Shown here: piece by piece, positions 416-24,285 of the stretch
How the letters are laid out: each line of letters begins with the position of its first letter
How positions within the stretch are numbered: the first letter of the stretch is position 1
Origin: a virus
UHGV virus genome: UHGV-0063910
Length of the DNA stretch: 35,857 bases
Direction: 5' to 3' (one strand)
Notes under the pieces: generated by a model
The model's input: only the letters and a program-made list of their open reading frames with translations
Told to the model about the DNA's origin: nothing
Databases searched by the model: none
Position numbers and translations under genes: made by a program

Positions 416-744
416 CAGTTCACCACCTGTTTAAACTCTGCGCTGAACTCAACACGCAACATACTGACCTGCGACGACCATTTTGCGCAGGTCACCTTTA
501 TCTGCCTGTAACCATAAGGCGGCGTCCACAGAAAGGCCTTCCAGCCCCCGTGCTCAGCCAGAAACGACTCCAGCGCCGTGGCCTCCTCACGGGAGACAGA
601 CAGCGTCACGCTGTACGTTTTCAGGTCAGCGTTCAGCCCGGCAGGCGCACGCTGGGAATAGCCATCACCAAAGCGCACCTCCCTGACGGAAGGAGCCGAT
701 GTCACATCCATCCCGGGTTTCACTTTCCAGCGGAAGGTTTTCAT
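415..744 (-). CDS. M: Minor tail protein M
   Basis: 109-aa ORF MKTFRWKVKPGMDV... matches lambda gpM in sequence and length; sits between H and L as in lambda. Confidence 0.9.
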   Translation of the reverse strand: MKTFRWKVKPGMDVTSAPSVREVRFGDGYSQRAPAGLNADLKTYSVTLSVSREEATALESFLAEHGGWKAFLWTPPYGYRQIKVTCAKWSSQVSMLRVEFSAEFKQVVN

Positions 745-3320: not shown

Positions 3321-3753
3321 ACCGGACTCCTCCTGCGATCCCTTCTGATACTGTCATCAGCATTACGTCATCCTCCGTCATGCCCGTCACATCCGGGGAA
3401 GCGGGGATAACTTCATTCCCGTCCGGGTCAAAGCGGACGCCTCCGGCAAGCCCTGCCGCTTTCTGCATCAGCACATCATATTCAGGCTCTTCGTCAGCCT
3501 CACGCCGGTTCAGCAGACTGAAATCCAGCGGATGCATATCCGGATCGCTGAAAAACAGGCTGAGTACGGTGTACGTCAGCCCGGAAAAGTGCATATCCAG
3601 CAGAACATCATGAAAATAGTGGGTACTGTAAAAGCGGTGCCAGTCGGCATACTCCGTGGATGACATCCCGGCAAGCATGGCGCGCCAGTCGGGTCGCCCC
3701 ATCTCACGCGCCAGTTTCAGGGCAAAACTCAGCTCACCGTCGAACACTTTCCC
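3313..3753 (-). CDS. T: Tail assembly chaperone T portion, expressed as G-T fusion by programmed -1 frameshift
   Basis: ORF in -1 frame relative to G, with no credible independent start. Slippery heptamer GGGAAAG lies at 3747..3753 (minus strand) at the end of G, as in lambda. Confidence 0.8.
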   Translation of the reverse strand, partial: GKVFDGELSFALKLAREMGRPDWRAMLAGMSSTEYADWHRFYSTHYFHDVLLDMHFSGLTYTVLSLFFSDPDMHPLDFSLLNRREADEEPEYDVLMQKAAGLAGGVRFDPDGNEVIPASPDVTGMTEDDVMLMTVSEGIAGGVRYG

Positions 3754-4151
3754 GCAGAAACAGGCTCTGCAGGCCCGGCGTCCTCTGCCTGTTCAGGGGC
3801 ATTATTCACCACAAACTCAGACATACCGGACAGCCGGTACACCACGTTTTCAGCATGAGAAATTGCCTCTGTGGGCCAGGTGGTAAGCACTTCCTGCTCA
3901 ATCTGTTTAACGGCCTCATTCATGGACGGCATCTGCGTCTTCTTCGGATGGTTATGCCACAGGGACATCGCCACCACAAAAGCGCCGGTTCTGATGACGT
4001 CTTCCACAGTAACCTGCCGGTTGCTGTCTGACTCCGCCTGTTCTGCCTGCCGTTTCATCAGGGCAAGATGCTCAATACGCTGCAGGGCTGACAGTTCAGA
4101 AAGCGTGACGGTCACGCCGTTATGTTCAAATGATTCGGTTTTCAGGAACAT
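3729..4151 (-). CDS. G: Tail assembly chaperone G
   Basis: 140-aa ORF MFLKTESFEHNGVTVTLSEL... matches lambda gpG; the last codons contain the G GGA AAG slippery site. Confidence 0.9.
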   Translation of the reverse strand: MFLKTESFEHNGVTVTLSELSALQRIEHLALMKRQAEQAESDSNRQVTVEDVIRTGAFVVAMSLWHNHPKKTQMPSMNEAVKQIEQEVLTTWPTEAISHAENVVYRLSGMSEFVVNNAPEQAEDAGPAEPVSAGKCSTVS

Positions 4152-4166
4152 CGCTGACTCTCCGGA

Positions 4167-4907
4167 TTAACTGGCGGTGACGGTGATTTCTGCAACCGCA
4201 GCAAACTCACCATTACCGGATACAACCGGAATGTTGACCCTGCCTGCAGCAACGCCGTTCACGGTGATGGTCATACCACTGACCGACACGGTGGCTTTTG
4301 TTTTATCCGCAGACACCGCACGGAAGCTCTTGTCGGTTGCGCCTTCCGGCTGGAATGCCACGGTCAGCGTCGTGCTCTGCCCTTTCACCACCGAGGTGCT
4401 GGCAGGCGTCACGGTCATGCCGGTTGCCGCTGTGACCGTGCTGCGATCTTCTGCCATCGACGGGCGTCCCACATTGGTGACCTTCACCGTGCGGGTGATC
4501 ACTTCCTTCGCCGTCACCGCTTTACCGATACTGCTGACCCAGCCACGGAACACATCGACCGTGCCGTTCGGGAAGCGGATTTTATAGGCACGGGTATCAC
4601 CTTCATTAAACCACGCCAGCAGCGCCTGCTGCCCCTGTTCTCCGGGCATCCACGCCAGCGTGAAGCTGGTATCTCCGGCTGATTTCTGCCCCTGCCCGGT
4701 CGCAGTCCAGTCCGCATCTTCATCATCGAGATAGCTGTCGTCATAGGACTCAGCGGTCAGTTCGCCGGGCGTCAGGTCTTTAACTTTTGCCAGACGCGAC
4801 CAGTCCACGTCTGAAAGCGGGTTCGCATAAGGGTCACCGTTCCCCTTATAAACCCACAGTGTGGTCCCGGCACCTTTCACCGGCATTGTAGGATTTGGTA
4901 CAGGCAT
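4167..4907 (-). CDS. V: Major tail protein V
   Basis: ORF contains [22 protein letters not shown]..., the lambda gpV N-terminus. Start placed at the internal ATG 4905-4907 with GAGGA RBS (the track ORF extends to 4937). C-terminal Ig-like Thr/Val-rich region. Confidence 0.9.
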
Positions 4908-4914
4908 ATCGTCC

Positions 4915-5310
4915 TCACATTTCATAGGTAATGACATAAGTCAGATCGGCTGAACTCCACAGGCCCGCATCATCGTCGCGTCGGTAGTCATAGCCACTGG
5001 CCACCATACTGGTGATCAAATCTGACAGTGCCGGGATATCGCTCATCACCGGATAAATCCGGGACTCCATCCACGAATCCAGCGCTGAATCCGGCACCTG
5101 AGCAGGCAGGAAAACTTCAATATGCAGCTCCGCCTGCCAGGTATCGCTGTCCAGCTCTTCGCCCGTGTATTCAGCGCCGGTGAGATAAACGGCAATTGCC
5201 GGAAAATCCGCCTCATCAAAAACAGCGGGGCGACCATCAAAAAGCGTCGCCCCGGTGTCATGTTTTTCCAGTGCATCCAGTACGGCTGCACGGAGTTCAG
5301 TATGTTTCAT
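4915..5310 (-). CDS. U: Tail terminator protein U
   Basis: 131-aa [36 protein letters not shown]... matches lambda gpU. Confidence 0.9.
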
Positions 5311-5885
5311 CGCTTTATTACCATCCTCAGTTGATGCTGCAGCGCATAGCCCAGCTCTTTCGGAAGACGCTCACGCCGTATCCGCTCAATATTCTGTTTA
5401 AACGCCGTGGTCAGCGGCACCGCCATCGGAATTTTCACCACATCAATGGGGTAACGGTTTTTCCCGGCCACACGCTGCATGACATGCCAGCGGCCATTTT
5501 TCAGTTGCTGAATAAACGCGCCGGGAATACGACGGTTTCCCACCACAAGCACGCTGCCGCCACCTTTCAGGGATGAACGCTGCCCCTTTTTACGACGCCT
5601 GCGTCGGGACAGGACAACCCGCACGTTACCCAGCCTGATTACGGGCAAATCCCCCCGGTTAACTTTGATTCTGGCCTGCGGATTTTTGACTGTGGCCCTT
5701 TTCAGCCTGGCCCTTTCCTTTACCAGTTTCCGGCGTACCTTTGTCTCACGGGCAACCTGTGCCACCGACTGCGATATCGCGGATGAAGCAACGCGGTTAA
5801 TGGCCATTGCGGCGGCACCGGGCACCGCCGTTCTGCTGATACGGCTGAGGTTTTCAACGGCCTGCTCAAGACCTTTTATGGCCAT
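5307..5885 (-). CDS. Z: Tail completion protein Z
   Basis: 192-aa ORF MAIKGLEQAVENLSRISRTAVPGAAAMAINRV... matches lambda gpZ. Confidence 0.9.
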   Translation of the reverse strand: MAIKGLEQAVENLSRISRTAVPGAAAMAINRVASSAISQSVAQVARETKVRRKLVKERARLKRATVKNPQARIKVNRGDLPVIRLGNVRVVLSRRRRRKKGQRSSLKGGGSVLVVGNRRIPGAFIQQLKNGRWHVMQRVAGKNRYPIDVVKIPMAVPLTTAFKQNIERIRRERLPKELGYALQHQLRMVIKR

Positions 5886-5896
5886 ACATCCCCCTT

Positions 5897-6250
5897 TCAG
5901 CGGCGACGGTTAACGGCAGGCGGTACGCCCCGCCCAAGCCAGAGATGACAGCTTCCGCCATCATCCGGCGAAATCCGGTCTATCCAGAAGTTTTCCTCAC
6001 CGATGGTCAGCGTGTCGCCGCGCCGCAGCTGCCGCACATCATCAGTCCGGACAAACAGGGACGGGCTGGAGCCTTCAACGCGCACGCCCTGTCCGGCATA
6101 GCTGATATTTTCAGGGTCATCAAAAACACCACGTATCACAGCACCGGACTGCTCACCGGATGTCATGGTGGCTGACGTTCCCATGTACCCGCGTATCGTT
6201 TCATCGGCGCAGGCAATGGCAGCATCGAACAGGTTATCGAAATCAGCCAC
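5897..6250 (-). CDS. FII: Head-tail joining protein FII
   Basis: 117-aa ORF MADFDNLFDAAIA.ADETIRGYMGTSAT... matches lambda gpFII. Confidence 0.9.
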   Translation of the reverse strand: MADFDNLFDAAIACADETIRGYMGTSATMTSGEQSGAVIRGVFDDPENISYAGQGVRVEGSSPSLFVRTDDVRQLRRGDTLTIGEENFWIDRISPDDGGSCHLWLGRGVPPAVNRRR

Positions 6251-6261
6251 AGCGCCTCCCG

Positions 6262-6657
6262 TTATTGTATTCTGGCCAGGCCGCGCTCTGTCATTTCAGC
6301 TGCCACACCGGCAGAGACACGGAACGCCGTTCCCGGCAGCACAAATGCCACAGCCTCATCCCGCGTGGCGTGAAGTGCATCAGTATGCAGCGTCACCAGT
6401 GCCACAACCGTGACCAGATCAGCCGTATCAGTCACGGTATCCGGCTGCGCTGATACAACCTCATTTTCATGTCCGGTCAGCACATTTTCCGGGCTGAGAG
6501 GGATATCCTGACCGGCAGTGTCGCCCGTGTCATCAAGCTCTTCTTCCAGTTCTGCCACACGGAGCGCCAGTTCTTCTTTCGTCCCCGTCAGGCTGATATC
6601 ACGGTTCAGTTGTTCACCCAGCGAGCGGAGACGGGCAATCAGTTCATCTTTCGTCAT
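6262..6657 (-). CDS. FI: DNA packaging / head completion protein FI
   Basis: ORF contains MTKDELIARLRSLGEQLNRD..., the lambda gpFI N-terminus; start placed at ATG 6655-6657. Confidence 0.85.
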   Translation of the reverse strand: MTKDELIARLRSLGEQLNRDISLTGTKEELALRVAELEEELDDTGDTAGQDIPLSPENVLTGHENEVVSAQPDTVTDTADLVTVVALVTLHTDALHATRDEAVAFVLPGTAFRVSAGVAAEMTERGLARIQ

Positions 6658-6698
6658 GGACTCCTCCACAGAGAAACAATGGCCCCGAAGGGCCATGA

Positions 6699-7489
6699 TT
6701 ACGCCAGTTGTACAGACACGAACTCATCAGGGTCAGCCAGCAGCATCAGCGGTGCTGACTGAATCATGGTGAACTCACGCGCCGGGTCGCCGGTGGTCAC
6801 CCAGTTTTTCGGGTAACGGGCAGAGGCGTTAATGCCTTCGCGCTGTGCGTCCGCATCCTGAATGCAACCATAGGTGCGCAGACCGCGTGCCTGAGTGTTC
6901 CCCAGCACCATCGTGTTGTCCGGCAGGAAGTTCTTTTTGACGCCGTTTTCCACGTACTGTCCGGAATACACGACGATGGCCACATCGCCATACATTCCCT
7001 TATAAGACACCGCTTTGCCCAGGTCTTTTACCGCTGTCTCCAGCTCGGAATGAGAGCCGCGACGGGTATCCAGCTTCTCCTTGACGGCTTTGAAGGAACG
7101 GAACAGCGCCCAGCCTTTCGGATCAAACACGATGATATTCACCACACCGCTGGCGTTCAGCGCGTAGGCTTCGATATCGTCGGTCGGGTCATACGTGGAC
7201 TTGTCACGCTTGCTCCACTCCGTGCCGCCGGACTGCGTGATGTTATTCGCCTCACTGCGGCCCATATCCACCTCAACCGGATCGAAGGCTTCACCGGTCA
7301 TGGTATATTTGCCCTTAAGCACGGCAGAAACTGCCTGCATCTCTTCGACCTGGGCAATCGCCAGATTTTCATCCAGCATATTCTGCCGAATAATACGGCG
7401 ACGACGGTAAGCCGGGTCAGCCAGGTTCTGCGGATCTTCATCCGGCAGGCGACGCAGGGTCATCTGCGGATTCACCTCATGCTTGGGTT
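6699..7489 (-). pseudogene. E: Major capsid protein E, 3' portion (lambda E codons ~82-341), cut off from its 5' end by the island
   Basis: Translation PKHEVNPQMTLRRLPDEDPQNLADPAYRRRR...DPDEFVSVQLA matches the lambda gpE C-terminal ~260 aa. The reading frame is preceded by a TAA where the island begins. The N-terminal 82 codons are at 18606..18849. Confidence 0.9.
7480..7489. repeat. Left copy of 10-bp direct repeat TGCTTGGGTT flanking the island (putative attL core)
   Basis: Identical 10-mer at 18606..18615. Outer flanks on each side are the two halves of the E reading frame (cctca on the left, tgacata on the right). Confidence 0.8.
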
Positions 7490-7608
7490 ACATGAGTCAA
7501 ATATGAAAGGATGTGAATGATTTTTAGTGATAATATGCTTCAGAATTACTTCCAAAACGAACCGTTGCAATACATCATGCAATACACAGGATATGTAAGG
7601 AGTTATTA

Positions 7609-7794
7609 ATGACTAATTCAGTTGATGTTCAAACCCGTAGAGAAGAATTTGAGCAAGGATATCGAGATGGCTTTCGTTCGGTTCAGGGCAATGTTTTACC
7701 CCCAAAAGCTCCAAGAATTGTACTTGAAACGGGTTCAAAACCTTACGATCAAGGCCATGCTTACGGGGTCAGAGATGCTGGAGGCAAGCGGTAG
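7609..7794 (+). CDS. Small hypothetical protein (61 aa), first gene of the island cargo region
   Basis: ATG at 7609 with AAGGAG 8 nt upstream; AT-rich region; directly upstream of the Abi-like gene. Confidence 0.45.
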   Translation: MTNSVDVQTRREEFEQGYRDGFRSVQGNVLPPKAPRIVLETGSKPYDQGHAYGVRDAGGKR

Positions 7795-7838
7795 CTATCA
7801 CTGGTATAGTCCATAGAAAAAGTGTAAGGGGTCCTAAA

Positions 7839-8600
7839 ATGGATAATTTTCTCAATGAGTTTTCGTCGGATCAGGAACGAGCTAGACATTTAGAGAACTT
7901 ATTAATTAAGGTTGCTCGAGGAGGACCTCGAGATAATAGTGAAAATTATATTTCTCTTAGATCGTACTTTATACAAAACTCTGTATTAAAACTGTTGCTT
8001 CCTGCATTCGTAAGAGAAAACAGAAGCCTAAAAAAATTTTGGGGATTCATACAGCAGAAGTTCCCAACATATAAAGAGCGCGAGTACTTCATCTCAACTG
8101 AATTCACACCGTTATTCGATTATTTCGAAGAGAATCATGCTACGCCTTCGGATGTTCACATAACTGACGGATTAAGAAGCTATGATGAGTGTGGCGTGAA
8201 TGAAGCTTGGGCAAAAGCTCTAGACAGAAGAAACAACGATCCTGAAGGGGCTATTACAGCATCTAGAACATTGCTTGAGACGGTTTGTAAACACATTCTT
8301 GATGATTTAAGTATTACTTATGATAGAAATCTAGACATGAGTGAACTTTATAAACTAACATCCAAAGCACTTAATTTGGCTCCAGATCAGCACGGAGAAC
8401 AGATTTTTAAGCAGATACTTAAAGGTTGCTCATCTGTGGTAAATGGCCTTGGCAATTTACGTAATAAATATGGCGATGCTCATGGCATAGGGAAAAAACC
8501 AATAAAACCTGCTGATCGACATGCTCTTTTAGCTGTTAATCTTGCAGGAAGCATGTCAGTTTTCCTCATTCAAACATGGCAAAACTTGTCAAACAAATAA
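7839..8600 (+). CDS. Abortive-infection-like protein with C-terminal HEPN-type motif (candidate anti-phage cargo)
   Basis: 253-aa ORF with AAGGGG RBS; motif LRNKYGDAHG fits the Rx4-6H HEPN signature. AT-rich composition by eye, at the island edge. Confidence 0.5.
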   Translation: MDNFLNEFSSDQERARHLENLLIKVARGGPRDNSENYISLRSYFIQNSVLKLLLPAFVRENRSLKKFWGFIQQKFPTYKEREYFISTEFTPLFDYFEENHATPSDVHITDGLRSYDECGVNEAWAKALDRRNNDPEGAITASRTLLETVCKHILDDLSITYDRNLDMSELYKLTSKALNLAPDQHGEQIFKQILKGCSSVVNGLGNLRNKYGDAHGIGKKPIKPADRHALLAVNLAGSMSVFLIQTWQNLSNK

Positions 8601-9308
8601 TACCTAATTTTTAACCTCAACTGATTAAATTTCGGTCAAACATCCGTTAGTGAAATACAAGTTGCTATGTAAATACACACCTGCAACTTGTATTACCAAC
8701 CAAGTTTAGCTCCCGATATTACTCATTTCCATTATTTTTCCTTGGCTAGCGCTTCGTCGAACATTTTTACGTGTTATCTTCAAGGTAGATGCTCGCAGAA
8801 ATGATAGTACCACCGATTCGGCGTTGACCATAAGCCAGCAGAACAAGATCCCCTTGGCCGGTTGTATTCGTTACACCACCAAATGCATAGAATGCCTTGT
8901 TATCAGTATCTTGCTTACTCGGCTACCCACAAGATTGTGGGGATAGCATTTGAGCAACGTAGCCTATCGTCACAGAAGCCCCTACTACAAACATCATATT
9001 ACTGGACGCTATACGCGCTCCTGACATTCAGATAGACACAGCAACGCAAATCATTTGCAGCAGACCAGAGCTTTTACTTTCCACAATAACTGGCACAAAT
9101 ACGAATTTCCCGACCCTCAGTAGAGAGCACAAGCGCATCTTTTCCAATATTCTGTTTCCTATGAAAAATACAGAATGTCAGCTCGCGAAATTTACTAGTA
9201 TTCAGATACTTTTCTAATCGAACCTCTCAGTTTAATCGTCATCATTACCTTATAGCTCTGCATTTCGAGTTCCTACAGTAGAGTAAGTGTTCAGTAACCC
9301 AAGTTCAG

Positions 9309-9517
9309 GAGAAAGGAAACGATCATGCCATTTTCAGTCCCAAATAATGCTTTCCATTTCCTTTCTTTTCAGGTGGTGTTTTAAATAAAAACATAAAGTT
9401 ACGGCGAAGAAGAACGGAAACGCCTTAAACCGGAAAATTTCCATAAATAGAGAAAAACTGCGCGCCTTCCGCCCCGTAGTCTGCCGGATTGCCGGAAAGG
9501 ACCCGCCAGCCAGAGCG
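9309..9517. other. Island cos-like site, homologous to the prophage cos
   Basis: About 210 bp alignable with 24828..25037. The ggttacggcgaagaagaacggaaacgccttaaaccggaaaatt block is near-identical. The cosN-like segment (about 9463..9474) differs at several positions and the R1-like hairpin has diverged. Confidence 0.75.
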
Positions 9518-9530
9518 GGCCCTAATTTCA

Positions 9531-9875
9531 TCAACCAATCAACTTATTGCGCCCTTTCAGGGCATTACGCCTGGCGCGTTCAATCTTGAGGCATAACGCC
9601 GCATCAGGTTTTTCCGGTGTGGGTACGAGGCAATAGTTTGATGCTCGCGGGATATTGTTAATCCACTCAACAACCTCGCTTAAATACCAAGCCTTACGCC
9701 CTTCCGTAACCTGCACACGCTCAGGGAACTCTCCACGAGCCTCAAGGTTTAGCAGTGTACGGCGACTCAGGGTTGTAAGTTCCATCACCTGATTCATATC
9801 GACAAGACGCTCGCTTAAGCGCATTTTGTCATCGATATCTAATAGCTCTCGTAGCTGACTATCTCTTTCAATCAT
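9531..9875 (-). CDS. AlpA/MerR-type HTH protein next to the cos-like site (regulator or packaging-specificity factor)
   Basis: 114 aa; segment ELTTLSRRTLLNLEARGEFPERVQV...WYLSEVVEWINN fits the AlpA-family HTH pattern. GAGG RBS; last gene of the E-like/D-like operon. Confidence 0.5.
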   Translation of the reverse strand: MIERDSQLRELLDIDDKMRLSERLVDMNQVMELTTLSRRTLLNLEARGEFPERVQVTEGRKAWYLSEVVEWINNIPRASNYCLVPTPEKPDAALCLKIERARRNALKGRNKLIG

Positions 9876-9884
9876 TCTCGTACC

Positions 9885-10226
9885 TCACACACGTGCCAGC
9901 GGCTGAACAGAAATACCTGAGCCAACAAACGCAGCAACTTTTGCTGATAGTTGTGTTACAGACTCAGGCCAGTTCAGAGCATCAACATTTAAGACGCCGG
10001 TTTTATAAACCTGAGCCTGCGTTTTTGTCGCTGTATCGATTTGTACAGCGGAAACATAAACAGCTTTGCCTGCGCTCGTTCCATCCCATACCACCAGTGC
10101 ACCAGTTGCATCTTCTTGCATCAGTGGCGTAAATGCAGGAATTACCCCTTTATTAGCTGAAAATATCCCCAACGTAGTAACCAGTGCTTCAGTGCCAGCC
10201 ATGAGTTCAGTGTAATGAGTAGCCAT
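9885..10226 (-). CDS. Head decoration protein, lambda gpD-like (island-encoded)
   Basis: 113 aa; aligns with lambda D over TPLM...LVVWDGT..GKAV...YKTG....LNWPE.....AFVGSGIS. AAGGGGGAG RBS; immediately downstream of the E-like gene. Confidence 0.75.
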   Translation of the reverse strand: MATHYTELMAGTEALVTTLGIFSANKGVIPAFTPLMQEDATGALVVWDGTSAGKAVYVSAVQIDTATKTQAQVYKTGVLNVDALNWPESVTQLSAKVAAFVGSGISVQPLARV

Positions 10227-10235
10227 TGCTCCCCC

Positions 10236-11276
10236 TTAACCAATGCGAACGGTAACAAAACGATTGATGCGGGCCGGTATTGGCTGTGGTGCAGAGTGCG
10301 TTTGTACGTACTCAATAGCCGGATCTCCAGGCACAATGTAGTTTTTCGGTGCGAGTTCGGCTTTAGTCAGCCCCATTCGGATTAGCTCCGGATCCTGAAT
10401 GCCACCGTATGCAACGATGCCCTGAAGTGATGTATTGCCAAGAACCATCAAATCAGGATCAAGGAAATATTTTTCTGTTCCGTCCTCGTCGGTATAACGT
10501 CCGCTATACACAACAATAGCCACATCGCCTACGTAACCCTTAAAACTGACGGAATCCCCAAGATTTTTCAGGGCCGTTTCAAGAACGGAATTAGATCCCC
10601 GTCGAGTATCAAGGCAATCTTTTACTGCTTTAAAGGCGCGGTATTTTTTCCATACGTTGCGTCCCATTACGATGATATTTGTAGTCCCTTCGCTGATTTC
10701 TGCGTACTCTTCGATGTCATCATTTGGATCAAATGTTGATAAATCTCTACCGCTCCACTCCGTGCCGCCGGACTGCGTGATAATATTTTGTGGTTTTATA
10801 TTCCAGTCCAGTTCATAACGTTCAATGCCATCGCCCTCAATGATATTTTTCCCCGTTGTGATTGCCTGAACAGCAAGCCATTCAATACGTGCGCGAATGG
10901 CCTGCGCTTGTCTTACCATCGCTCGCTTTATTTTGAAATTGCGTGATGAATATGCATTGAATTGTTCCGGTGATACGCCTGGTTGACGAACGGCTATTTT
11001 ATTTGGGTCTATACTACTTTTTGGCTTCATGTAGCCAGGGCGAATTACTTTTGATTCGTAGCCTTCATCGCGTGATACTTTACTACCAACCATAGGGGAA
11101 CAAAATGCAGCCATCGGGATGTCTGGATCGTCAATAATATCAAGCGCAATATCCCGCGTCTCAAATGTAACGACTCGCTTAAAAAACAGGTTTATAAATA
11201 AAGAGTTAATCTGCCATTGAATATCTTCGGCATTAACAGTCTGTATTAACTCCGCTGGCGAATATAAACCACTCAT
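10236..11276 (-). CDS. Major capsid protein, lambda gpE-like, full length (island-encoded second copy)
   Basis: 346 aa. Conserved blocks ITQSGGTEWS, DTRRGS, GDVAIVVYSG, YG.IQD shared with lambda E and the split prophage E. Divergent from the prophage copy (roughly half of positions differ by eye). Confidence 0.85.
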   Translation of the reverse strand: MSGLYSPAELIQTVNAEDIQWQINSLFINLFFKRVVTFETRDIALDIIDDPDIPMAAFCSPMVGSKVSRDEGYESKVIRPGYMKPKSSIDPNKIAVRQPGVSPEQFNAYSSRNFKIKRAMVRQAQAIRARIEWLAVQAITTGKNIIEGDGIERYELDWNIKPQNIITQSGGTEWSGRDLSTFDPNDDIEEYAEISEGTTNIIVMGRNVWKKYRAFKAVKDCLDTRRGSNSVLETALKNLGDSVSFKGYVGDVAIVVYSGRYTDEDGTEKYFLDPDLMVLGNTSLQGIVAYGGIQDPELIRMGLTKAELAPKNYIVPGDPAIEYVQTHSAPQPIPARINRFVTVRIG

Positions 11277-11461
11277 ATAACCTCTTAATACTTAGTAAAA
11301 GTGTCGTATTAATTTTATCATCTGCCTTGATCGGCATCTTTATGCATTGCTATGCAATATTGTGCAAAGTTTCAATCTTCGTTTATTTATCCGGCGTTAC
11401 GTGTCATTCTGTACAGCGTTACAAGTTCAAAGACATAAATTATTCTCTTTGGTGATGAAAG

Positions 11462-11487
11462 GGTCGGAATATTCCGGCCTTTTTTTT
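11462..11487 (+). terminator. Intrinsic terminator on the plus strand (hairpin + T8)
   Basis: ggtcggaatattccggcc palindrome followed by tttttttt. No plus-strand ORF upstream, so it may end an unannotated small or antisense RNA. Confidence 0.5.
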
Positions 11488-11510
11488 GCGTGGTGTGACG
11501 GACTCAACTG

Positions 11511-11532
11511 ATAAAAGCCGGATTTCTCCGGC
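11511..11532 (-). terminator. Intrinsic terminator for the island replication operon (minus strand)
   Basis: On the minus strand gccggagaaatccggc followed by ttttat, immediately after the ssb-like stop. Confidence 0.5.
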
Positions 11533-11540
11533 CTGTGCGT

Positions 11541-11947
11541 TCAGAATGGAATATTGTCACCGTAGAGATCATCCCCTCCCGCTGGTGGTGTGTTGCCCTG
11601 TGTGCCTGTGGTTTTACGTCTGTTCCCGCCAGGTCGCACCGTTCGCGCACTGATTACGCTGTCTGCGATAACCTGCCAGCGCTGCCGCGTTTCACCGTTC
11701 TGTCCAGTCCACTGGCTCACCTGCATGTTACCCGCCACGCTCAGGAGTTCGCCTTTGTGATGCTTTGCCAGCGTGTCGGCTTGTCTGCCAAACGCCAGGA
11801 CAGATAACCACATCGTCGCCTGACCGTCATCCGACTGCAGGGCAGTGATACCGCCATACGCGCCAGCGTCATGGGGATGCCCTTGCTGGTCTGTTTTGTC
11901 TGCGGGTCGTCCACCAACCTCCCGTAAACTGATATTTGCGCCGTCAT
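11541..11947 (-). pseudogene. ssb: ssb-like gene split over two reading frames (frameshift near 11838..11850)
   Basis: The 11947 frame gives an SSB-like N-terminus (ISVYGRLVDDPQTKQ...). A different frame gives the OB-fold C-half (WLSVLAFG...KGELLSV...WTGQNGETR) and an acidic tail ending DNIPF. Confidence 0.55.
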
Positions 11948-12201
11948 GCTGCCTGCTCTCCGGACTTAATATTGATGGTTGTCACTTCCTCCGCTTCAGC
12001 AATCTCCCGTTCGGTCAGAGTGGCAAAGTTTGCAGCCGCCGTTGTCATGAATGCGCTAATCAGTTCGGGATGTGCTTTCGCGTATCCTTCACCGGCGTTG
12101 CGATCTATTGCCTTAATCGCCACCCTTAGCCAGTGTTCAGCCATATCAAGGGCGCGGTAATGTGGCTTTATATGTTTGTTCAGTTTTCCTGATGTGTGCA
12201 T
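11944..12201 (-). CDS. Hypothetical protein (85 aa), between the ori and the ssb-like gene
   Basis: ORF whose stop overlaps the ssb-like start; weak RBS. Confidence 0.4.
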   Translation of the reverse strand: MHTSGKLNKHIKPHYRALDMAEHWLRVAIKAIDRNAGEGYAKAHPELISAFMTTAAANFATLTEREIAEAEEVTTINIKSGEQAA

Positions 12202-12246
12202 TTTTATTTTTACCCCCTCGTTTAAAAAGTTTTGAAATGTGGTGCA

Positions 12247-12475
12247 CCTCCTCTACCTCTCTACCTAATCATCTTTCAGGTCAGTAATGGCGCGGCTTTC
12301 AGATGGGTAGAGGGCTTTCGGGGCCCTCTACCCATCCTCTACCCGCCCCTCACAAATGACCTTAATCATGGTGGAGGAGGTAGAGGGCTTTTATTTGCCT
12401 TCTACCTGACCCTCTACCTGCTTATCATATTGAATAATATATATTTATTTTCTTTAGGTAGAGGAGGTAGAGGGC
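12247..12475. repeat. Iteron array (about 9 copies of GGTAGAGG/CCTCTACC, both orientations) flanking an AT-rich stretch: putative island origin of replication
   Basis: Iterons at about 12251-12265, 12306-12313, 12325-12344, 12379-12386, 12399-12420, 12457-12473; AT-rich core 12421-12456; immediately 3' of the primase-helicase gene. Confidence 0.75.
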
Positions 12476-12487
12476 TTTTGTCTAAAA

Positions 12488-14239
12488 TTATAAAAACGCG
12501 TCGCAATCCTCTGTTGTTGTCACATTGGTTTGCGTAAGTCCTTTAACCCTGCGCGTTATATATTCACATCCGTAAACTTTCGCCGCTGGCTTCATGGCCT
12601 TGCTGAAATCAGCCACGTTTAGCGGCTTGCTTCTGCCTGCGTATGCCATAAACGCCAGATAGACGCGGTAAAGGCTGTTTCTGGTCGTGTACTTCACGGA
12701 ATCGCCACCGCCACCCATCATCAGGCCGCGCGCTTCCTCCAGAAAATTCAGAAACTGGCAAAACTCAATAACCGGATCCGTCTGTTGCTTTATCGCCAGT
12801 GCTTCTTCACCGTCGCGCTGTTCAATCAACAAATGTCGCGCCTTTTCTGGATCAGCAAAGTTTGCCAGCAATCTGCGGATAATCACGGGGATTTCAGCCG
12901 CGACCTTCTCCGGTAAATCCTTGTCCTTTTCTGCCTCGCTAACGATATTGTCGAAGCGGAAAATTACGCGACGACGTGACACACCTCCGGCCCGTTCGGT
13001 GAATATCATCGGGTTATTGTTGGTAGCCAGCACCACCGCCCTGATTACCTCCGTAAAACGCTTTTCATATTTCGGGTTTATTTCCACGGGGTCGCCGCCC
13101 GTGATTTTCTTGATGCCCGTGCCTTCGCCTGTATATTTCGGCTGGTCAGCCAGGACGATAAGACGTCTCCCGACAACCTGAGCACGCCCACCAGCATCAT
13201 CAAGCGAAGTCATTTCAGCGCTTACCGTGTTCTGTTTCCCTGCCAGAAGGCTGGCTATGTGCGTGAATGTACTCTTTCCGCTCCCGCCGTCTCCGGTGGC
13301 CTCAATAAACATCTGCCAGTCGTACCGGTTCGCCATAATCATGTACAGCGCGGCACATATACGCATCATCTTGCGCGGGTCTTTTCCGGCTGCGTGATCA
13401 AGCCATTTATGAAAGTTTGGCGCGTTGTCGCGGATGTTCTCCCCTGGTGCTGGTGGCGTGTACTCAATGCCGTTGTGCGTGGTGATCCAGTTCTCCGGCG
13501 AGTGCGGGGAAAATTCCCCCGTTTTCAGGTCAAGCACACCATTGGCGAACGGTAGCAAATCACCGGACGGCTCCCCCATGGGGTCGGCAATAACTTTTAA
13601 CGCCTCCACGGCGTTATTAATTGCACGCTTGCTGAATGTGGCCCTGTGCTCTGAATAGATCGCCACCATTTCGCGGCTCAGCTCCATTGTGCTGACCGGA
13701 CACCATACCCCGCCGCGCCATACGTGGACGATTTCACTTTCTGCATGAACACACACACCATCAAAGCGATCGGCAAGTAGTTGTGCACGTTCACTGTCTG
13801 CCATCTGTGAAAGTTGCGCCTTTTGCTTCGTCGGAAGATTAAGCACCAGACTTTCCCCACGCTCGCATTCCTCTTTGAGTCGCGGCAACTGGTCGGATAA
13901 ATCCACGGGGCTGGTGTCAGTAATCCCCGCGTATTCGTGTACGGTCTTCACTCCAGCCACAGCCAATAACGTAACAATCTGCGTCATGCTGTGCTCTGTG
14001 ATATGTCCTGCGCGGTAAACACGCACACACTGACGATCTTCATCAATGATCCGGTAATCGGTGATATTTTTCAGTTGCTCATCAGCCAGCACGACAGGCG
14101 GCACATCGTCGGCGGCAATATGTTTACCCGCCCATTCCTGCCACTCTTTCGCATGGCTCCACGCATCACTACCTGCAAAGATGATTACCTCTGTCAGTCT
14201 GTCGCGTGGCTGTTTTTTTAAGTTCGGTGCCAGTTTCAT
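12488..14239 (-). CDS. Primase-helicase (D5/P4-alpha-like, SF3 helicase with Walker A)
   Basis: 583 aa; Walker A motif GDGGSGKST in the C-terminal half; location between regulatory genes and ori typical of satellite replication modules. Confidence 0.8.
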   Translation of the reverse strand: MKLAPNLKKQPRDRLTEVIIFAGSDAWSHAKEWQEWAGKHIAADDVPPVVLADEQLKNITDYRIIDEDRQCVRVYRAGHITEHSMTQIVTLLAVAGVKTVHEYAGITDTSPVDLSDQLPRLKEECERGESLVLNLPTKQKAQLSQMADSERAQLLADRFDGVCVHAESEIVHVWRGGVWCPVSTMELSREMVAIYSEHRATFSKRAINNAVEALKVIADPMGEPSGDLLPFANGVLDLKTGEFSPHSPENWITTHNGIEYTPPAPGENIRDNAPNFHKWLDHAAGKDPRKMMRICAALYMIMANRYDWQMFIEATGDGGSGKSTFTHIASLLAGKQNTVSAEMTSLDDAGGRAQVVGRRLIVLADQPKYTGEGTGIKKITGGDPVEINPKYEKRFTEVIRAVVLATNNNPMIFTERAGGVSRRRVIFRFDNIVSEAEKDKDLPEKVAAEIPVIIRRLLANFADPEKARHLLIEQRDGEEALAIKQQTDPVIEFCQFLNFLEEARGLMMGGGGDSVKYTTRNSLYRVYLAFMAYAGRSKPLNVADFSKAMKPAAKVYGCEYITRRVKGLTQTNVTTTEDCDAFL

Positions 14240-14535
14240 TTTTTGCCCCTGAATGCGTTAATCATGCTTTTCATTTTCTGGATGTTTCCCCGCGCTTTTT
14301 CCCTGCTGATGGGGTTACTGCGGGGTGCGGCATATACCAGGGAAAAATCACGCCGGAACTGATAAACAGGCATCACGCAGTCATAGCTATACCCCTCACG
14401 GCGGTAAGTGATGCGCCGTTCTGCCACGCCTTTAATCGTTACCGTGCCGCCGTATTTATCGCGGTAAATATCGCCGTTCATAAATTCAGGCCGAGCGGGG
14501 CCGCTGGCAATAAAGCCAGAATTTTTCATTTCCAT
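14236..14535 (-). CDS. Hypothetical protein (99 aa), translationally coupled to primase
   Basis: Stop overlaps the primase ATG (ATGA). Confidence 0.5.
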   Translation of the reverse strand: MEMKNSGFIASGPARPEFMNGDIYRDKYGGTVTIKGVAERRITYRREGYSYDCVMPVYQFRRDFSLVYAAPRSNPISREKARGNIQKMKSMINAFRGKK

Positions 14536-14552
14536 ATTATTTATTCCTCGAC

Positions 14553-14774
14553 TTAACTCGACTTATTTGATAGCAGGGCACTATTTATTGCGTCATTGAG
14601 TTTTTCTGCTGCTTCATCAATAAGTGACAACAGGCCATAAGCAATATTTGCATCTTCATTGTCATTTATGCAATCAAGCCACATATTTAATATTGCTTTT
14701 GCTGAATTATTTAAAGTTAATGAACTTTCTGCACATGCTAACAATTTAAAAAAGACTTCCCGTTCTGTATTCAT
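14553..14774 (-). CDS. Hypothetical small protein (73 aa)
   Basis: ORF in the tightly packed minus-strand operon; AT-rich codons. Confidence 0.4.
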   Translation of the reverse strand: MNTEREVFFKLLACAESSLTLNNSAKAILNMWLDCINDNEDANIAYGLLSLIDEAAEKLNDAINSALLSNKSS

Positions 14775-14966
14775 TTAATCCCCCACCAGCTTACTTTCTT
14801 CCTCAATCAAAAAACTAGCGACACTTCCCGAAAGACGCGCCAGTAGGCTCGCCAGTGCGGATATATCAGCATCTGTAATTTTGTTCGGGTATACCTCAAG
14901 AAGGCGGCAAATAATTTCTGTCTGGTGCGCACGTTCAGCGGCTTCGTGTAATGTAATTTCCTGCAT
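14775..14966 (-). CDS. Hypothetical small protein (63 aa)
   Basis: Abuts neighbouring ORFs in the same operon. Confidence 0.4.
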   Translation of the reverse strand: MQEITLHEAAERAHQTEIICRLLEVYPNKITDADISALASLLARLSGSVASFLIEEESKLVGD

Positions 14967-15151
14967 TAATGCACCTCTTTTAATTCATACACTGCTGAAA
15001 TAATGACTTGTGATAAGCCATATTCTGATGATTCGCTTCTCACCGCAGCAATAGCCGTCTGAACATTAACAGCCTTCACGTTCTGAGCGATACCAATTGT
15101 GTGGCCTAGTGGGTTAACCGCACGAGCAAATACACGGAAGGTTTTAAGCAC
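14966..15151 (-). CDS. Hypothetical small protein (61 aa)
   Basis: Abuts neighbouring ORFs in the same operon. Confidence 0.4.
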   Translation of the reverse strand: MLKTFRVFARAVNPLGHTIGIAQNVKAVNVQTAIAAVRSESSEYGLSQVIISAVYELKEVH

Positions 15152-15508
15152 GGCATACCTCCTGACGAATACGGGCGGCGAATATCATCACGCAGCCAGT
15201 TGGGGATTGTTGGCGGGCTTCCTGTTCGCTGGTGGCCTCGATGTGTATTACGCGTGGTTGTGCGGTGCTCAGGGCGATAAAACGCCAGATGAAATTGTTT
15301 TCGCATTTCTGAATAAACAGCGTGTTTTCTTCACGCCCTTTCCAGAAAGCCGCAGTATAGCCCATCTCCTTAACCATCTTGCGGGCATCAACCAGCGTGT
15401 CAGCGGCAACATGTACCGTAGTTGCTCCATCTGCCATGCGGTCGTGGTGTAGTGCCAGAAAGGTGTATATAAATTTAGGGTGAGTTTGGGTATGCTGTGT
15501 TCCAGCCA
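15144..15508 (-). CDS. Hypothetical protein (121 aa), first gene of the island early operon
   Basis: ATG at 15506-15508 with GAGG RBS. The track ORF upstream of this ATG (to 16058) is antisense to the regulator gene and Ser/Arg-rich, so treated as spurious. Confidence 0.5.
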
Positions 15509-15595
15509 TAATCGTTACCTCGTTTAACGGTTTGGTTAGAAGCCCGGTTAGTGTTCGCGCACTGCCGGGTTTCGTCGTTTTTATGAATCGATCAT

Positions 15596-15699
15596 TGTGA
15601 GATACATAGCGACCATAATGTGAGATATACATTATATTGTGGTGATATACATTGCAAGTGTTTTTATATCTCACTTTTGTGTATAGTGATATACACATA
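15596..15699. promoter_or_regulatory. Divergent control region with 5 copies of a GTGA(G/T)ATA(T)ACA(T) operator-like repeat
   Basis: Copies at about 15596-15608, 15619-15632, 15640-15651, 15665-15674 (inverted), 15687-15699, between the minus-strand operon start and the plus-strand regulator. Confidence 0.55.
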
Positions 15700-15717
15700 A
15701 CAAATTGGTGATTAACT

Positions 15718-16020
15718 ATGTCTGTATACAAAAATGCAAAATCGCAAATGACAACGATCAGGGTTCCCCACGATGTTATGGAGGGCATGGAATCCGTAAA
15801 ACTGGACGGCGAAAGCAACGCCGGATTCATAGTAACCGCCATGCGCGGTGAGATCGCCCGCCGCCAGGCAGAAGGAAGCGGAGAAAATCCCCTCGTGTCT
15901 TCACTGGATGCCTTAGCTAAGGTCGAACAAATCGGCATCAAGGCAGCGGAGGAAATCGGGCAACTCGTAGCCGTCGCTCGTGAAGAACTCCAGCGGCGTA
16001 AAGCCAAAGAATCTGAATAA
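15718..16020 (+). CDS. Putative ribbon-helix-helix-like DNA-binding regulator (candidate island repressor)
   Basis: 100 aa; N-terminus QMTTIRVPHDVMEGMESVKLDGESNAGFIVTAMRGEIARRQ fits a strand-helix-helix layout; immediately downstream of the operator repeats. Confidence 0.4.
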   Translation: MSVYKNAKSQMTTIRVPHDVMEGMESVKLDGESNAGFIVTAMRGEIARRQAEGSGENPLVSSLDALAKVEQIGIKAAEEIGQLVAVAREELQRRKAKESE

Positions 16021-16370
16021 TTAGTATCAGCGCCGTGATGTGAGTAACTACGGCGCATTGCTATGTAAATACTGGCAATAAACAGAAAAGGTAGTTCTAC
16101 TCCGAATAATTTTATCTGACACTACTCCTGAACTAACATGCGCTTATCTTACAGGATATAAATATAAATCCATAAAATCACGATTAAATAAAGTCGCTCC
16201 AAACATAAACCACACCCAACGCTTAACAAGATAGCAACAAACAGGTAAATAACTTGCAGAAATATTTATCGCAAGGATTATCATTATTAATGACAAATCA
16301 CTTTACCAAGTCATTCCCCTCTCTTATCATAAAGAGAAAGTAATAAATAAGTTAAGGGAGTTAGAATGCT

Positions 16371-16907
16371 ATGAATCTAAAAAAAATAGCCACAAACACA
16401 AAAAACAAGATAACAGAAACATTTAATAAACTTATATTGGAGGCATCTAAAACCCCCACGCAAGATGAAATTAAAATACTTGAGAGAAGGAGTAAGAAGT
16501 TTAATTACTCCTTTTTCTCATACGCAGTCACAGGAGCTATAATAGTTTTTTGCTCTCAACCATTAATTAAATACGCAAACCCAATACTTATTTTATTGAG
16601 TGGTCTGTTACTGTCTATCATCATTATCATTCTCAGAATGATTTATATTTCACAAGCGAATGCATCATGGACAACCAAAAAACGCTCACATGTACTAGTT
16701 CATTTTCTTTCTGCATGTTTCATAGCATCAACATTGACGTTGCTATATCAGGCTTACGATAATAACATCACACACAAATTGTACTGTAAAAATATACAAC
16801 AACTTATTGAAAAAAGGATAGAAATAGAAAAAAACATCAGCATATTCAGTGGGATGCAATGCACCCCGGTATATGATTACTCTTTATTTGGATTTAATCT
16901 CTTATAA
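16371..16907 (+). CDS. Small membrane protein (about 3 TM helices), AT-rich cargo
   Basis: 178 aa; hydrophobic stretches FFSYAVTGAIIVFCSQPLI, ILILLSGLLLSIIIIILRMIYI, VLVHFLSACFIASTLTLLY; Lys/Asn/Ile-rich; preceded by GGGAG. Confidence 0.5.
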   Translation: MNLKKIATNTKNKITETFNKLILEASKTPTQDEIKILERRSKKFNYSFFSYAVTGAIIVFCSQPLIKYANPILILLSGLLLSIIIIILRMIYISQANASWTTKKRSHVLVHFLSACFIASTLTLLYQAYDNNITHKLYCKNIQQLIEKRIEIEKNISIFSGMQCTPVYDYSLFGFNLL

Positions 16908-16927
16908 AGAATGTTATTACTGATTTG

Positions 16928-16961
16928 AGTACAAATTCTCAAATCAGTAATTCATAATATT
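16928..16961. terminator. Bidirectional terminator hairpin (13-bp stem) between the membrane-protein gene and alpA
   Basis: ttactgatttgag ... ctcaaatcagtaa inverted repeat with an 8-nt loop and T-rich flanks on both sides. Confidence 0.55.
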
Positions 16962-16976
16962 TTATTCTGAGATAAT

Positions 16977-17213
16977 TTAAACTACCCACTCACCTCGAAT
17001 CCATGCCTGCACTTCTGAAAGACGATATGCAACAGCAGTGGAACCAATCTTGATCCGCTTAGGAAATTTTCCTTCCTTCTCCAGCTTCCAGCGTGTGCTG
17101 TTCGCAAGAGTGGTTAGCTCCCGACATTCTTTCTCACGGATCATTCGGTCAATGTTAGGAATGTACTCCAGACCCTTTTTATCAACAATTGCCATTTTTT
17201 TCATGTTAACCAA
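16977..17213 (-). CDS. alpA: AlpA-family HTH regulator / excisionase-like protein
   Basis: 78 aa; ELTTLANSTRWKLEKEGKFPKRIKIGSTAVAYRLSEVQAWI matches the AlpA pattern; directly downstream of int, overlapping it by 8 nt. Confidence 0.7.
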   Translation of the reverse strand: MVNMKKMAIVDKKGLEYIPNIDRMIREKECRELTTLANSTRWKLEKEGKFPKRIKIGSTAVAYRLSEVQAWIRGEWVV

Positions 17214-18441
17214 CCTTTTGTTTGAGGATTGTCACTTTTGAATCAGCACCTGCGATGCTATTGAGATATGTAGTCCAGAGTTCCAGAGCATCCAGTTTTT
17301 TAGCCATAAACTTACTCCGGTTGTAAACACCTGCCACGCCAGGTAGCGCATGGCCTAACAGTTGTTCTACTACATAAAATTCAACACCGAGATCACTTAG
17401 ATGAGTAGATAGCGTTCTTCTAAGGTCGTGTAGTGACCATTGTTTTTCATGGCCCAAACGTTTACCGATTTTCCCCCCAATCTTGCTTACGCTTTCTCTA
17501 ATTCGCAGACTTCCCAGCACATAACCAGTATGTTTTGTCTCTTCGTGAACATCCGTTACCCACTGTCGTAGAATTTCAGGTACTGGTCTGACGATTTCAA
17601 CACCAGTTTTTGAGTGATCTTTTGGTACAGTCCAAACCCAACTTTCGAGATCCCATTCGCTCCATTCTGATAATCGGGCTTCACTCATTCGACATCCAAA
17701 TACTGTACAAAGCACAAACATTTTTCGCGTGTATTCAGACATTAGTTTTAAATCAGGCTCGACAAAAATTGCCTTCCAGAGCTGGCCGAGTTCGGCTTCA
17801 TCCAGAACCCGATCCCGCTTACCTGCAATCTGCCCCACATCACTCATGCGCAAATCCTTTAAAGCATCACACGTCGCGTACTGGCGTACCCGACAAAAAC
17901 GAAGAGCTAATTTAGTGTCAGAAAAAACATACGCCGCCATAACTGGTGCATTACGTTTAATTCGGTCAAAACAGTCCAGCCATTCATATAGGTGAGTGTC
18001 ATTTACGGGCAAATGACCGATATAGGGAAAGATATGCTTTCGAAATCTGCCAAGCGTTACAGCATGAGTTTTACGACGCACCTTACAGTAATTTTCATAC
18101 CAGTAATTTAGTGCATCCTCCACTGTGACCGGCTTTAAGCGTTCTTCAGCCTGAATCTTAATCTGGATACGCGGATCACGTTTGTCAGCCAACCAACCAC
18201 GGCACTCGTCGCGCTTTTCCCTTGCCTGTTTGAGTGACATATCAGGATATTTACCCAACGTTAGCCAGACCGGAGCAGCCCGGCCACCTGCTAACCTGTA
18301 GAAGAAAACAAAGCTTACAGCCCCTTTAGTACTCACACGAATAGAAAGCCCCTTTCCATCAGCAATGGTGATCTGCTTTTCTCTGGGTTTCCCCAGATAT
18401 CCTTTAAGCGCTTTGTCGCTCAGTTTGTTCTCGCCAGCCAT
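17206..18441 (-). CDS. int: Tyrosine integrase (P4-type)
   Basis: C-terminal catalytic region with HDLRRT...LGH...Y residues; sits next to the right repeat. Start placed at ATG 18439-18441 (MAGENKLSDK...); the track ORF extends to 18492. Confidence 0.85.
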   Translation of the reverse strand: MAGENKLSDKALKGYLGKPREKQITIADGKGLSIRVSTKGAVSFVFFYRLAGGRAAPVWLTLGKYPDMSLKQAREKRDECRGWLADKRDPRIQIKIQAEERLKPVTVEDALNYWYENYCKVRRKTHAVTLGRFRKHIFPYIGHLPVNDTHLYEWLDCFDRIKRNAPVMAAYVFSDTKLALRFCRVRQYATCDALKDLRMSDVGQIAGKRDRVLDEAELGQLWKAIFVEPDLKLMSEYTRKMFVLCTVFGCRMSEARLSEWSEWDLESWVWTVPKDHSKTGVEIVRPVPEILRQWVTDVHEETKHTGYVLGSLRIRESVSKIGGKIGKRLGHEKQWSLHDLRRTLSTHLSDLGVEFYVVEQLLGHALPGVAGVYNRSKFMAKKLDALELWTTYLNSIAGADSKVTILKQKVG

Positions 18442-18605
18442 TTTTAGCCCCAAAAAGCAATACAAGCTGCAATACAGAGATGATTGCAACACACAGATAA
18501 CGAGGAAAATTCAGTGAAAGCACCAGATAAACTTATTCTTTATTATCAAAAGATTAAGTGTAAAAACCAGCAACTACACGAAAGCCTCAGAAAGCCATGC
18601 TAAGT

Positions 18606-18615
18606 GCTTGGGTTT
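18606..18615. repeat. Right copy of 10-bp direct repeat TGCTTGGGTT (putative attR core)
   Basis: Identical to 7480..7489; lies inside the codons KPKH of the E 5' fragment. Confidence 0.8.
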
Positions 18616-18849
18616 GACATAACCCGGCGTAAATTCAGAGGTGGAGCCGCCACGGGATCGGATAACCTCACCGGAAACAATCGGCGAAACGTACAGCGCC
18701 ATGTTTACCAGTCCCGGAATTTGTGAGAGATAGACTTTTTCCGTGGTGAAAGGATAGGTTTCACGGAAAAACAGGCGCAGAAACAGCGGATCGAACTTAA
18801 AGTGATGCTGGGTCGATGCCAGTAATTCTGCAGTTGTATATACAGACAT
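18606..18849 (-). pseudogene. E: Major capsid protein E, 5' portion (codons 1-~82), reads into island DNA
   Basis: MSVYTTAELLASTQHHFKFDPLFLRLFFRETYPFTTEKVYLSQIPGLVNMALYVSPIVSGEVIRSRGGSTSEFTPGYVKPKH matches the lambda gpE N-terminus, then continues as LAWLSEAFV-stop in island sequence (track ORF ends at 18574). Confidence 0.9.
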
Positions 18850-18904
18850 AAATTATTTCCATAAAAAAAGCCGCACAGGCGGCCTTTGTTGATGAAGGGG
18901 AAGA

Positions 18905-19237
18905 TTAAACGATGCTGATTGCCGTTCCGGCAAACGCGGTCCGTTTTTTCGTCTCGTCGCTGGCAGCCTCCGGCCAGAGCACATCCTCATAACGGAACGA
19001 GCCGGACTTGTAGAACGTCAGTGTGGTGCTGGTCTGGTCAGCAGCAACCGCAAGAATGCCAACGGCTGCACCGTCGGTGGTGCCATCCCACACAACCAGC
19101 TTACGGATAGTGCCATCCAGCATCAGTGGGGTCATTGCAGGCGTTTTCGCACTCAATCCGCCAGGCGCAATTGCTGTATGAGCTGGATCACTGTTACCCA
19201 GCGGCTGGTAATGGTTAAACTCTTCTTTTGTCGCCAT
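18905..19237 (-). CDS. D: Head decoration protein D
   Basis: 110-aa ORF ...[30 protein letters not shown]... matches lambda gpD. Confidence 0.9.
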
Positions 19238-19246
19238 AACTGCCTC

Positions 19247-20558: not shown

Positions 20559-20578
<20 letters not shown>
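19247..20578 (-). CDS. C: Head maturation protease / scaffold C (ClpP-like), GTG start
   Basis: Sequence from TAELRNLPHIASMAFNEPLMLEPAYARVFF... matches lambda gpC; GTG at 20576-20578 with GGAGGAG RBS. The track ORF extends upstream into B. Confidence 0.85.

Positions 20579-24259
<3,681 letters not shown>

Positions 24260-24285
<26 letters not shown>

Follow-up and report, generated by a model that had tools for sequence, protein, structure and literature searches.

A decayed lambda gpI-type tail assembly gene next to the cos of a helper-embedded satellite island

The prophage and its embedded island

The window, the entire 35,857-nucleotide stretch of viral DNA that was analyzed (UHGV-0063910), is a lambdoid prophage. 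Its tail genes (741-7475) and its head and terminase genes (18574-24805) are all on the minus strand, and its major capsid gene E is interrupted by an island of about 11.1 kb. The features of the island that are of concern here are the following:

7490..18614, minus strand: helper-embedded PICI of about 11.1 kb, splitting the major capsid gene E after codon 82
7839..8600, plus strand: Abi_C/AbiJ-like accessory gene of 253 aa, the left neighbor of the gpI pseudogene and convergent with it
8601..8766, no strand assigned: spacer of 166 bp between convergent genes, from the Abi stop to the stop of the gpI pseudogene
8654..8694, no strand assigned: hairpin with a perfect 12-bp stem (arms 8654-8665 and 8683-8694) and a 17-nt loop
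8767..9263, minus strand: pseudogene of a lambda gpI-like tail assembly protein, with its ATG at 9263-9261 and its TAA at 8769-8767
9264..9308, minus strand: leader of 45 bp between R1 of cosB and the start of the pseudogene
9309..9478, minus strand: island cos, with R1 at 9309-9322, R2 at 9357-9370, R3 at 9405-9424 and the left flank of cosN at 9469-9478

The N-terminal 82 codons of E occupy positions 18849-18604. The frame picks up again at about 7490 and runs down to 6699, and both capsid halves are marked as partial in RefSeq. The att core is a 10-bp direct repeat, TGCTTGGGTT, with copies at 7480-7489 and 18605-18614. The island encodes a tyrosine integrase, an AlpA-family regulator, a D5-type primase and gpE- and gpD-like capsid proteins. 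The first three are minus-strand open reading frames with Pfam matches (17206-18492, 9531-9875 and 12488-14239, respectively). All of these genes are co-oriented with the late operon, and the Abi_C/AbiJ-like gene is opposite to them. The latter matches Pfam PF14355 with an E-value of 1.7e-23 and the AbiJ model of PADLOC with an E-value of 2.4e-22, and its product is called 'abortive infection family protein' in the annotation of RM14723.

The island is a helper-embedded PICI of the E:Phage_cap_E:80 group, a kind of element that is already known. The type was described in 2023 by Tommasini, Mageeney and Williams under the name '11capE' (PMC10111431). The island has the insertion site in the capsid gene near codon 80, the terminal direct repeats, the orientation of integrase, AlpA and primase, and the helper-like cos that characterize this group. 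Like the '11capE' PICIs, it is about 11 kb long, is inserted at about codon 80 of the major capsid gene of a prophage, and carries integrase, AlpA, D5-type primase, homologs of gpE and gpD, and a copy of a cos of the helper type, each in the orientation of the late operon. The island cos and the prophage cos are about 90% identical. The published element type includes a dynamic 'Late zone' made up of late genes captured from prophages (PMC10111431), and the gpI pseudogene occupies the position of this zone in the published scheme. Unlike in that account, the terminal gene of the late zone is documented here as a relic at several stages of decay.

The segment between the Abi-like gene and cos

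A preliminary description of the island drew attention to positions 8601-9308, reporting that no open reading frame of 60 or more residues is present there. This is correct: the longest frame in the segment has 57 residues (8862-9035, plus strand), and the next listed frame to the right, 9334-9534 on the minus strand, overlaps cos. The neighbors are also those that were named, with the Abi_C/AbiJ-like gene ending at 8600 on the left and a lambda-type cos, whose cosB begins at 9309, on the right. RefSeq annotates no feature in this gap of about 700 bp. The gap was further described as unusual, which is true when one considers how densely genes are packed in a compact element, but not in statistical terms. 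An equal lack of frames of 60 or more residues is seen in 53% of mononucleotide shuffles of the 708-bp segment (41% GC), and the median longest frame of the shuffles is 58 residues compared to 57 observed.

Three alternatives had been offered for the segment, namely a decayed gene, a structured non-coding RNA and small proteins. The first of these accounts for 497 of the 708 bp, as established both by homology and by the existence of intact orthologs, whereas Rfam gives no backing to the second, nor Pfam and PHROGs to the third. The segment has three pieces: the pseudogene (8767-9263), the spacer (8601-8766) and the leader (9264-9308). It can be stated with high confidence that the segment consists for the most part of a ruined lambda gpI-type tail assembly gene, together with a short spacer that contains a hairpin, and that it represents ordinary gene decay, with no new RNA and no hidden gene. 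Among 5426 complete E. coli genomes the identical segment occurs in four, and it is also found on one IMG/VR contig that carries the same prophage-island composite; every one of these copies is 100% identical.

Identity of the pseudogene

The pseudogene makes up 70% of the segment. In a low-stringency DNA search, positions 8774-8960 weakly match genes annotated as 'tail assembly protein' and a pseudogene in a sister island. Intact gpI-type proteins align by tblastn to 8773-9217 of the minus strand in two frames that are joined by a frameshift and contain two in-frame stops. The amino acid identity is 59% to the gpI of a capsid-forming PICI (L003; E-value 5e-38) and 50% to a phage gpI (L004; E-value 3e-32). 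When the frame is repaired, the translation matches PHROG 32, 'tail assembly protein', with an E-value of 3.3e-38 over positions 39-200 of the 203 in the profile. The nearest proteins among 5.8 billion are intact Lambda_tail_I proteins of 197 residues with identities of 66-70%. The closest of them, P0001 from a Citrobacter satellite (197 aa), has 70% amino acid identity, and its gene has 80% nucleotide identity. A search of genome contigs with exact peptide patterns of the repaired protein found no relative.

The repaired translation has no match in Pfam, even at E-values up to 1, and its N-terminal Lambda_tail_I domain is not recognized. The Pfam model Lambda_tail_I (PF06805) has 83 positions and covers N-terminal residues only, and even the intact relatives L003 and L004 obtain only weak scores with it. 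The repaired protein goes unmatched because a deletion of 86 bp has largely removed these 83 residues.

Like members of the lambda gpI family (PHROG 32; PF06805), the pseudogene is homologous over profile residues of about 40-200 and retains the hydrophobic middle segment and the C-terminal motif (YAFGGVTNT...YG.RRIGG.IIS). Unlike them, it has no open frame of about 200 codons and most of its N-terminal domain is gone. Its position is also different: it lies beside cos in a satellite, whereas lambda gpI is located between K and J in the tail-tip module.

Lesions and loss of coding constraint

Five disabling lesions were placed by a three-way nucleotide alignment with intact relatives (alignment A1). 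In the direction of the pseudogene, they are:

9219..9220, minus strand: junction of an 86-bp frameshifting deletion (A1 columns 478-563)
9097..9099, minus strand: frameshifting +1 insertion in an A/T run (A1 column 684; the switch of frame is seen in tblastn and in frame translations)
9047..9048, minus strand: junction of a 12-bp in-frame deletion (A1 columns 736-747)
9028..9030, minus strand: nonsense codon TGA, where the intact relatives have TGG (Trp) (tblastn, frame translations and A1)
8923..8925, minus strand: nonsense codon TAG, where the intact relatives have TTG (Leu) (tblastn, frame translations and A1)

The N-terminal Lambda_tail_I domain loses about 28 codons through the largest deletion. 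Because two of the lesions shift the frame and two others are nonsense codons, the sequence is classed as a pseudogene of the gpI family and not as a member gene.

The substitutions that are unique to the pseudogene are spread evenly over codon positions 1, 2 and 3 (17:18:20), whereas those unique to the two intact lineages are concentrated at the third position (12:8:73; Fisher p 5e-7). Thus this copy is evolving without coding constraint.

Leader and cos

The motifs of the island cos have the same order and spacing as those of the prophage cos at 24829-24998, and motifs R1, R2 and R3 are identical in the two. The labels R1, R2, R3 and cosN follow textbook knowledge of phage lambda cos. The right boundary of the segment is thus a full cosB, arranged like lambda cosB (R3-I1-R2-R1), with motifs and spacing identical to those of the helper. 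The homology to phage cos ceases just after R1. Phages have the small terminase gene Nu1 after cosB, whereas the gpI relic follows R1 here.

In alignments A1 and A2, the last 35 or so nucleotides of the leader are weakly similar to the 3' end of a DUF1441 open reading frame that precedes gpI in a Citrobacter island. By tblastn the match to the DUF1441 tail comprises about 10 codons with 70% identity and an E-value of about 0.015 in a tiny search space of 450 nt. Judging from this similarity, the end of the leader may tentatively be derived from a DUF1441 (TerS-like) frame. Positions 9309-9478 are mostly lambda-type cosB and not a DUF1441 remnant.

A perfect inverted copy of the junction between the att core and the island arm (CTTGGGTTAC, 10 nt) is present in the leader, at 9294-9303 compared to 7482-7491, and lies 5 bp from the point where the phage cos homology ends. 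By a hand estimate, about 0.3 such copies are expected by chance in the island, and the copy may be due to chance. By analogy with another island, for which integrase-assisted capture has been suggested (PMC10111431), it could mark such a capture.

The spacer and its hairpin

The homology to intact relatives stops at the stop codon of gpI (alignment A1). The spacer that follows has no homology in blastn searches outside the identical copies of the island, which are those in the four E. coli genomes and one IMG/VR copy. It contains the hairpin that the preliminary description had noted, which is real and slightly longer than was stated, its arms being perfect over 12 bp. The folding energy is -17.1 kcal/mol on the plus strand (z -4.2) and -25.6 kcal/mol on the minus strand (z -6.1), and inverted repeats with perfect 12-bp arms and loops of up to 30 nt number about 0.1 per shuffled window.

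The hairpin is most plausibly an element that forms the 3' end of, or terminates, the transcripts of one or both of the convergent units, a reading in which our confidence is low. In its strongest form, this explanation holds that the hairpin is a working terminator or 3'-end stabilizer common to the convergent Abi (plus) and late-zone (minus) transcripts, and the sole functional element of the segment. It is compatible with the pseudogene and may be regarded as possible, if somewhat doubtful. The stem is strong, and it is situated between convergent genes, 54 nt past the Abi stop and 73 nt past the stop of the pseudogene. However, the hairpin does not have the G+C-rich stem and U-tract of an intrinsic (Rho-independent) terminator: only 4 of the 12 pairs are G-C, and a U-tract is absent on both strands, the tails being UACCAACC on the plus strand and UUUCACUA on the minus strand. 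A scan with the terminator consensus called no site in the region, the hairpin included. Furthermore, the convergent stops in related islands are 17-110 bp apart, without this hairpin.

The two Abi loci closest to the one described here (83% and 81% amino acid identity) stop at contig ends or are interrupted, and an Abi relative with 63% identity has no such hairpin. A search for the two arms with any loop between them retrieved no metagenome sequence, and from IMG/VR it retrieved the same prophage-island composite alone. An integron attC-like site was rejected on inspection, the R'/R'' core motifs and an integron integrase being absent.

RNA and small proteins as alternatives

The segment might instead encode a structured non-coding RNA with the hairpin as its core, either a satellite immunity RNA or one that serves the Abi gene as an antitoxin-like or regulatory RNA. 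Shuffled sequences are far less stable than the hairpin, which is also too long to be expected by chance, and its 150-nt context on the minus strand folds somewhat better than shuffles do (z -3.0). Immunity RNAs have been reported in satellites of this group, though in the Bro zone (PMC10111431). Against these points, the covariance-model search that had been proposed at the outset yielded no match to Rfam 15 at the gathering threshold in the whole window. At E-values up to 5, the best scores in 8400-9600 are 17-23 bits compared to gathering scores of 37-55, with E-values of 0.2-4.7, which is the level of chance. A repeat scan of 7400-9600 found no tandem or meaningful direct repeats, which speaks against a repeat RNA of the ToxI kind and against a CRISPR-like array. 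Promoter-like sites number three where 4.8 are expected, the pseudogene already explains 70% of the segment, and the hairpin is absent from viral and metagenome contigs other than those of the same composite. No test detected a larger RNA to which the hairpin would belong. Such an RNA is therefore very unlikely.

Least probable of all is that the segment encodes at least one small protein of fewer than 60 residues, such as the 57-residue frame at 8862-9035 (plus strand) or the 46-residue frame at 8706-8846 (minus strand): several frames of 22-57 residues do exist, but the longest is what shuffling produces, none matches a Pfam or PHROGs family at E-values up to 0.1, the protein-like pieces of the minus strand are fragments of gpI, and the plus-strand frames are antisense to these fragments and are not preserved in the sequence context of the intact orthologs.

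Intact genes and graded remnants in related satellites

The translated comparison with related islands, which had likewise been proposed, uncovered both pseudogene remnants and intact genes. An intact gpI gene is present in a Citrobacter freundii satellite (L005, 10001-10594), which is located between the portal and head-completion genes of a prophage, and in a satellite on a contig of a metagenome assembly (Logan; L006, 7026-7619). The homologous islands thus have an intact gene where the copy in the window is degraded, a finding that the preliminary description had named as part of its refutation. The gene order in both is integrase, AlpA, primase, capsid, cos, gpI, a convergent accessory gene and att. 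The late zone of these related satellites ends with gpI, which is directly downstream of cos. In both of them, a short DUF1441 frame (a small-terminase-like helix-turn-helix) is found between cos and gpI (9757-10014 in L005 and 6851-7039 in L006), overlapping the start of gpI. It could be a truncated DNA-binding module for packaging specificity.

The same gene family is terminal in the late operon of the capsid-forming PICIs that are integrated at fis, for example in E. coli FDAARGOS_1283 and Enterobacter soli (L003, 5991-6590, and L011, 5859-6458). As in the island described here, gpI comes at the end, just before convergent accessory or defense genes and att, and one of the accessory genes of the Enterobacter soli island (L011) is an Abi_C homolog. 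Unlike the relic, the gene in the fis-integrated elements is intact (199 aa) and is preceded by the large terminase gene, not by a bare cos.

In E. coli, the best match to the intact Citrobacter gene among complete genomes is the pseudogene of the present segment. Two sister islands have shorter remnants in the same place. In T-HYM1 (L002) the remnant is 198 bp long, is annotated as a pseudogene or incomplete hypothetical protein, and adjoins a restriction endonuclease instead of Abi; in MDR_56 (L078) it is 86 bp long and unannotated. The E. coli family members at the capsid-gene site therefore have gpI remnants of 497, 198 and 86 bp at one and the same position. Thus gpI is recurrent as the terminal late-zone gene of these satellites and is being lost in the E. 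coli lineage that is embedded in the capsid gene.

The stretches from alpA to the accessory gene in the two sister islands have little or no annotation: there is none in 4612-5538 of L078 and only the one partial pseudogene of 198 bp in 5493-6539 of L002. Both stretches consist of cos and the shorter gpI remnants, and the 'ORF-free gap' is therefore a trait of the family and not a peculiarity of this window.

The RM14723 island (L001) has an extra insert of about 780 bp between cos and alpA (12993-13681), composed of a tail-gene fragment and an intact gpI. This gpI is about 31% identical to the relic and matches Lambda_tail_I with an E-value of 1e-23. The insert looks like a fresh capture of a late gene beside the decayed copy.

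Decay of gpI and its presence in tail-stealing satellites

A satellite that resides inside its helper prophage would always be accompanied by the tail genes of the helper, so that its own copy of gpI would be redundant and dispensable. Such a copy might then have been eroded by deletions. The relic most likely does nothing now beyond spacing, and would be a neutral remnant that separates cosB from the Abi cassette. The decay would, we infer, follow from the embedding in the helper. However, gpI is intact in the Citrobacter island L005, although this island also looks embedded in a helper; therefore, redundancy with the helper cannot be the whole cause of the decay.

The intact gpI-type genes of satellites are under purifying selection, as is evident from the pattern of substitutions over codon positions. 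A tentative proposal, which we consider possible but would not favor, is that satellites that borrow lambdoid tails keep an intact and constrained terminal gpI and so may take part in, or bias, the assembly of the helper's tail tip, beyond stealing finished tails, in which case this function would have disappeared from the E. coli capsid-embedded lineage, repeatedly or progressively. The satellites in question are the fis-integrated capsid-forming PICIs and the Citrobacter and Logan helper-embedded islands, with gpI next to cos or the terminase genes. The proposal concerns these intact relatives; the window holds only a dead copy. The feature in the window itself is an ordinary decayed late gene, and the mildly novel lead is found only in the intact relatives.

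The main text of PMC10111431 makes no mention of gpI or Lambda_tail_I, of 'tail assembly' or of pseudogenes. No account of gpI homologs in satellites was found in the related papers that were read or by a search of the literature for cf-PICIs together with tail assembly protein, and none of the papers found takes up why tail-stealing satellites carry a tail-tip assembly gene. The Tai tail-assembly-inhibition systems were considered as a link and rejected: neither gpI nor 'tail assembly protein' occurs in PMC11364771, and the escape mutations from Tai map to the central tail fiber J (PMC11364771).

With respect to annotation, an unannotated gap of 700 bp is resolved into a pseudogene and a spacer, and a candidate 'mystery RNA' is removed. 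For satellite biology, the locus is a small, concrete example of how the dynamic late zone of helper-embedded PICIs turns over: the same gene is intact in Citrobacter, while E. coli has it in three states of erosion. The unexplained presence of gpI homologs in satellites that steal tails is a testable question.

Variable regions of the island

Just upstream of the Abi_C gene there is a frame of 61 residues (7609-7794, plus strand), which is hypothetical in RefSeq and has no match in Pfam or PADLOC. This frame and the Abi gene may be partners. Two further frames, 15144-16058 on the minus strand (304 aa) and 16371-16907 on the plus strand (178 aa), have no significant family in Pfam or PADLOC. 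They are within a region that differs from RM14723 (window positions 15292-16974) and fall in the variable Bro zone, as it is named in PMC10111431.

The window and RM14723 (L001) share a block that is 100% identical, 7459-9477, with the first mismatches at 7458 and 9478. It begins about 20 bp to the left of the att core and extends as far as the left flank of cosN. On the other side of cosN the identity of the two islands drops to about 85%, and it is about 97% in the flanking prophage. The accessory arm, from att to cosN, therefore seems to have been swapped as a whole, one of the boundaries being the site where terminase cuts. Such an exchange would fit recombination stimulated by cos ends.
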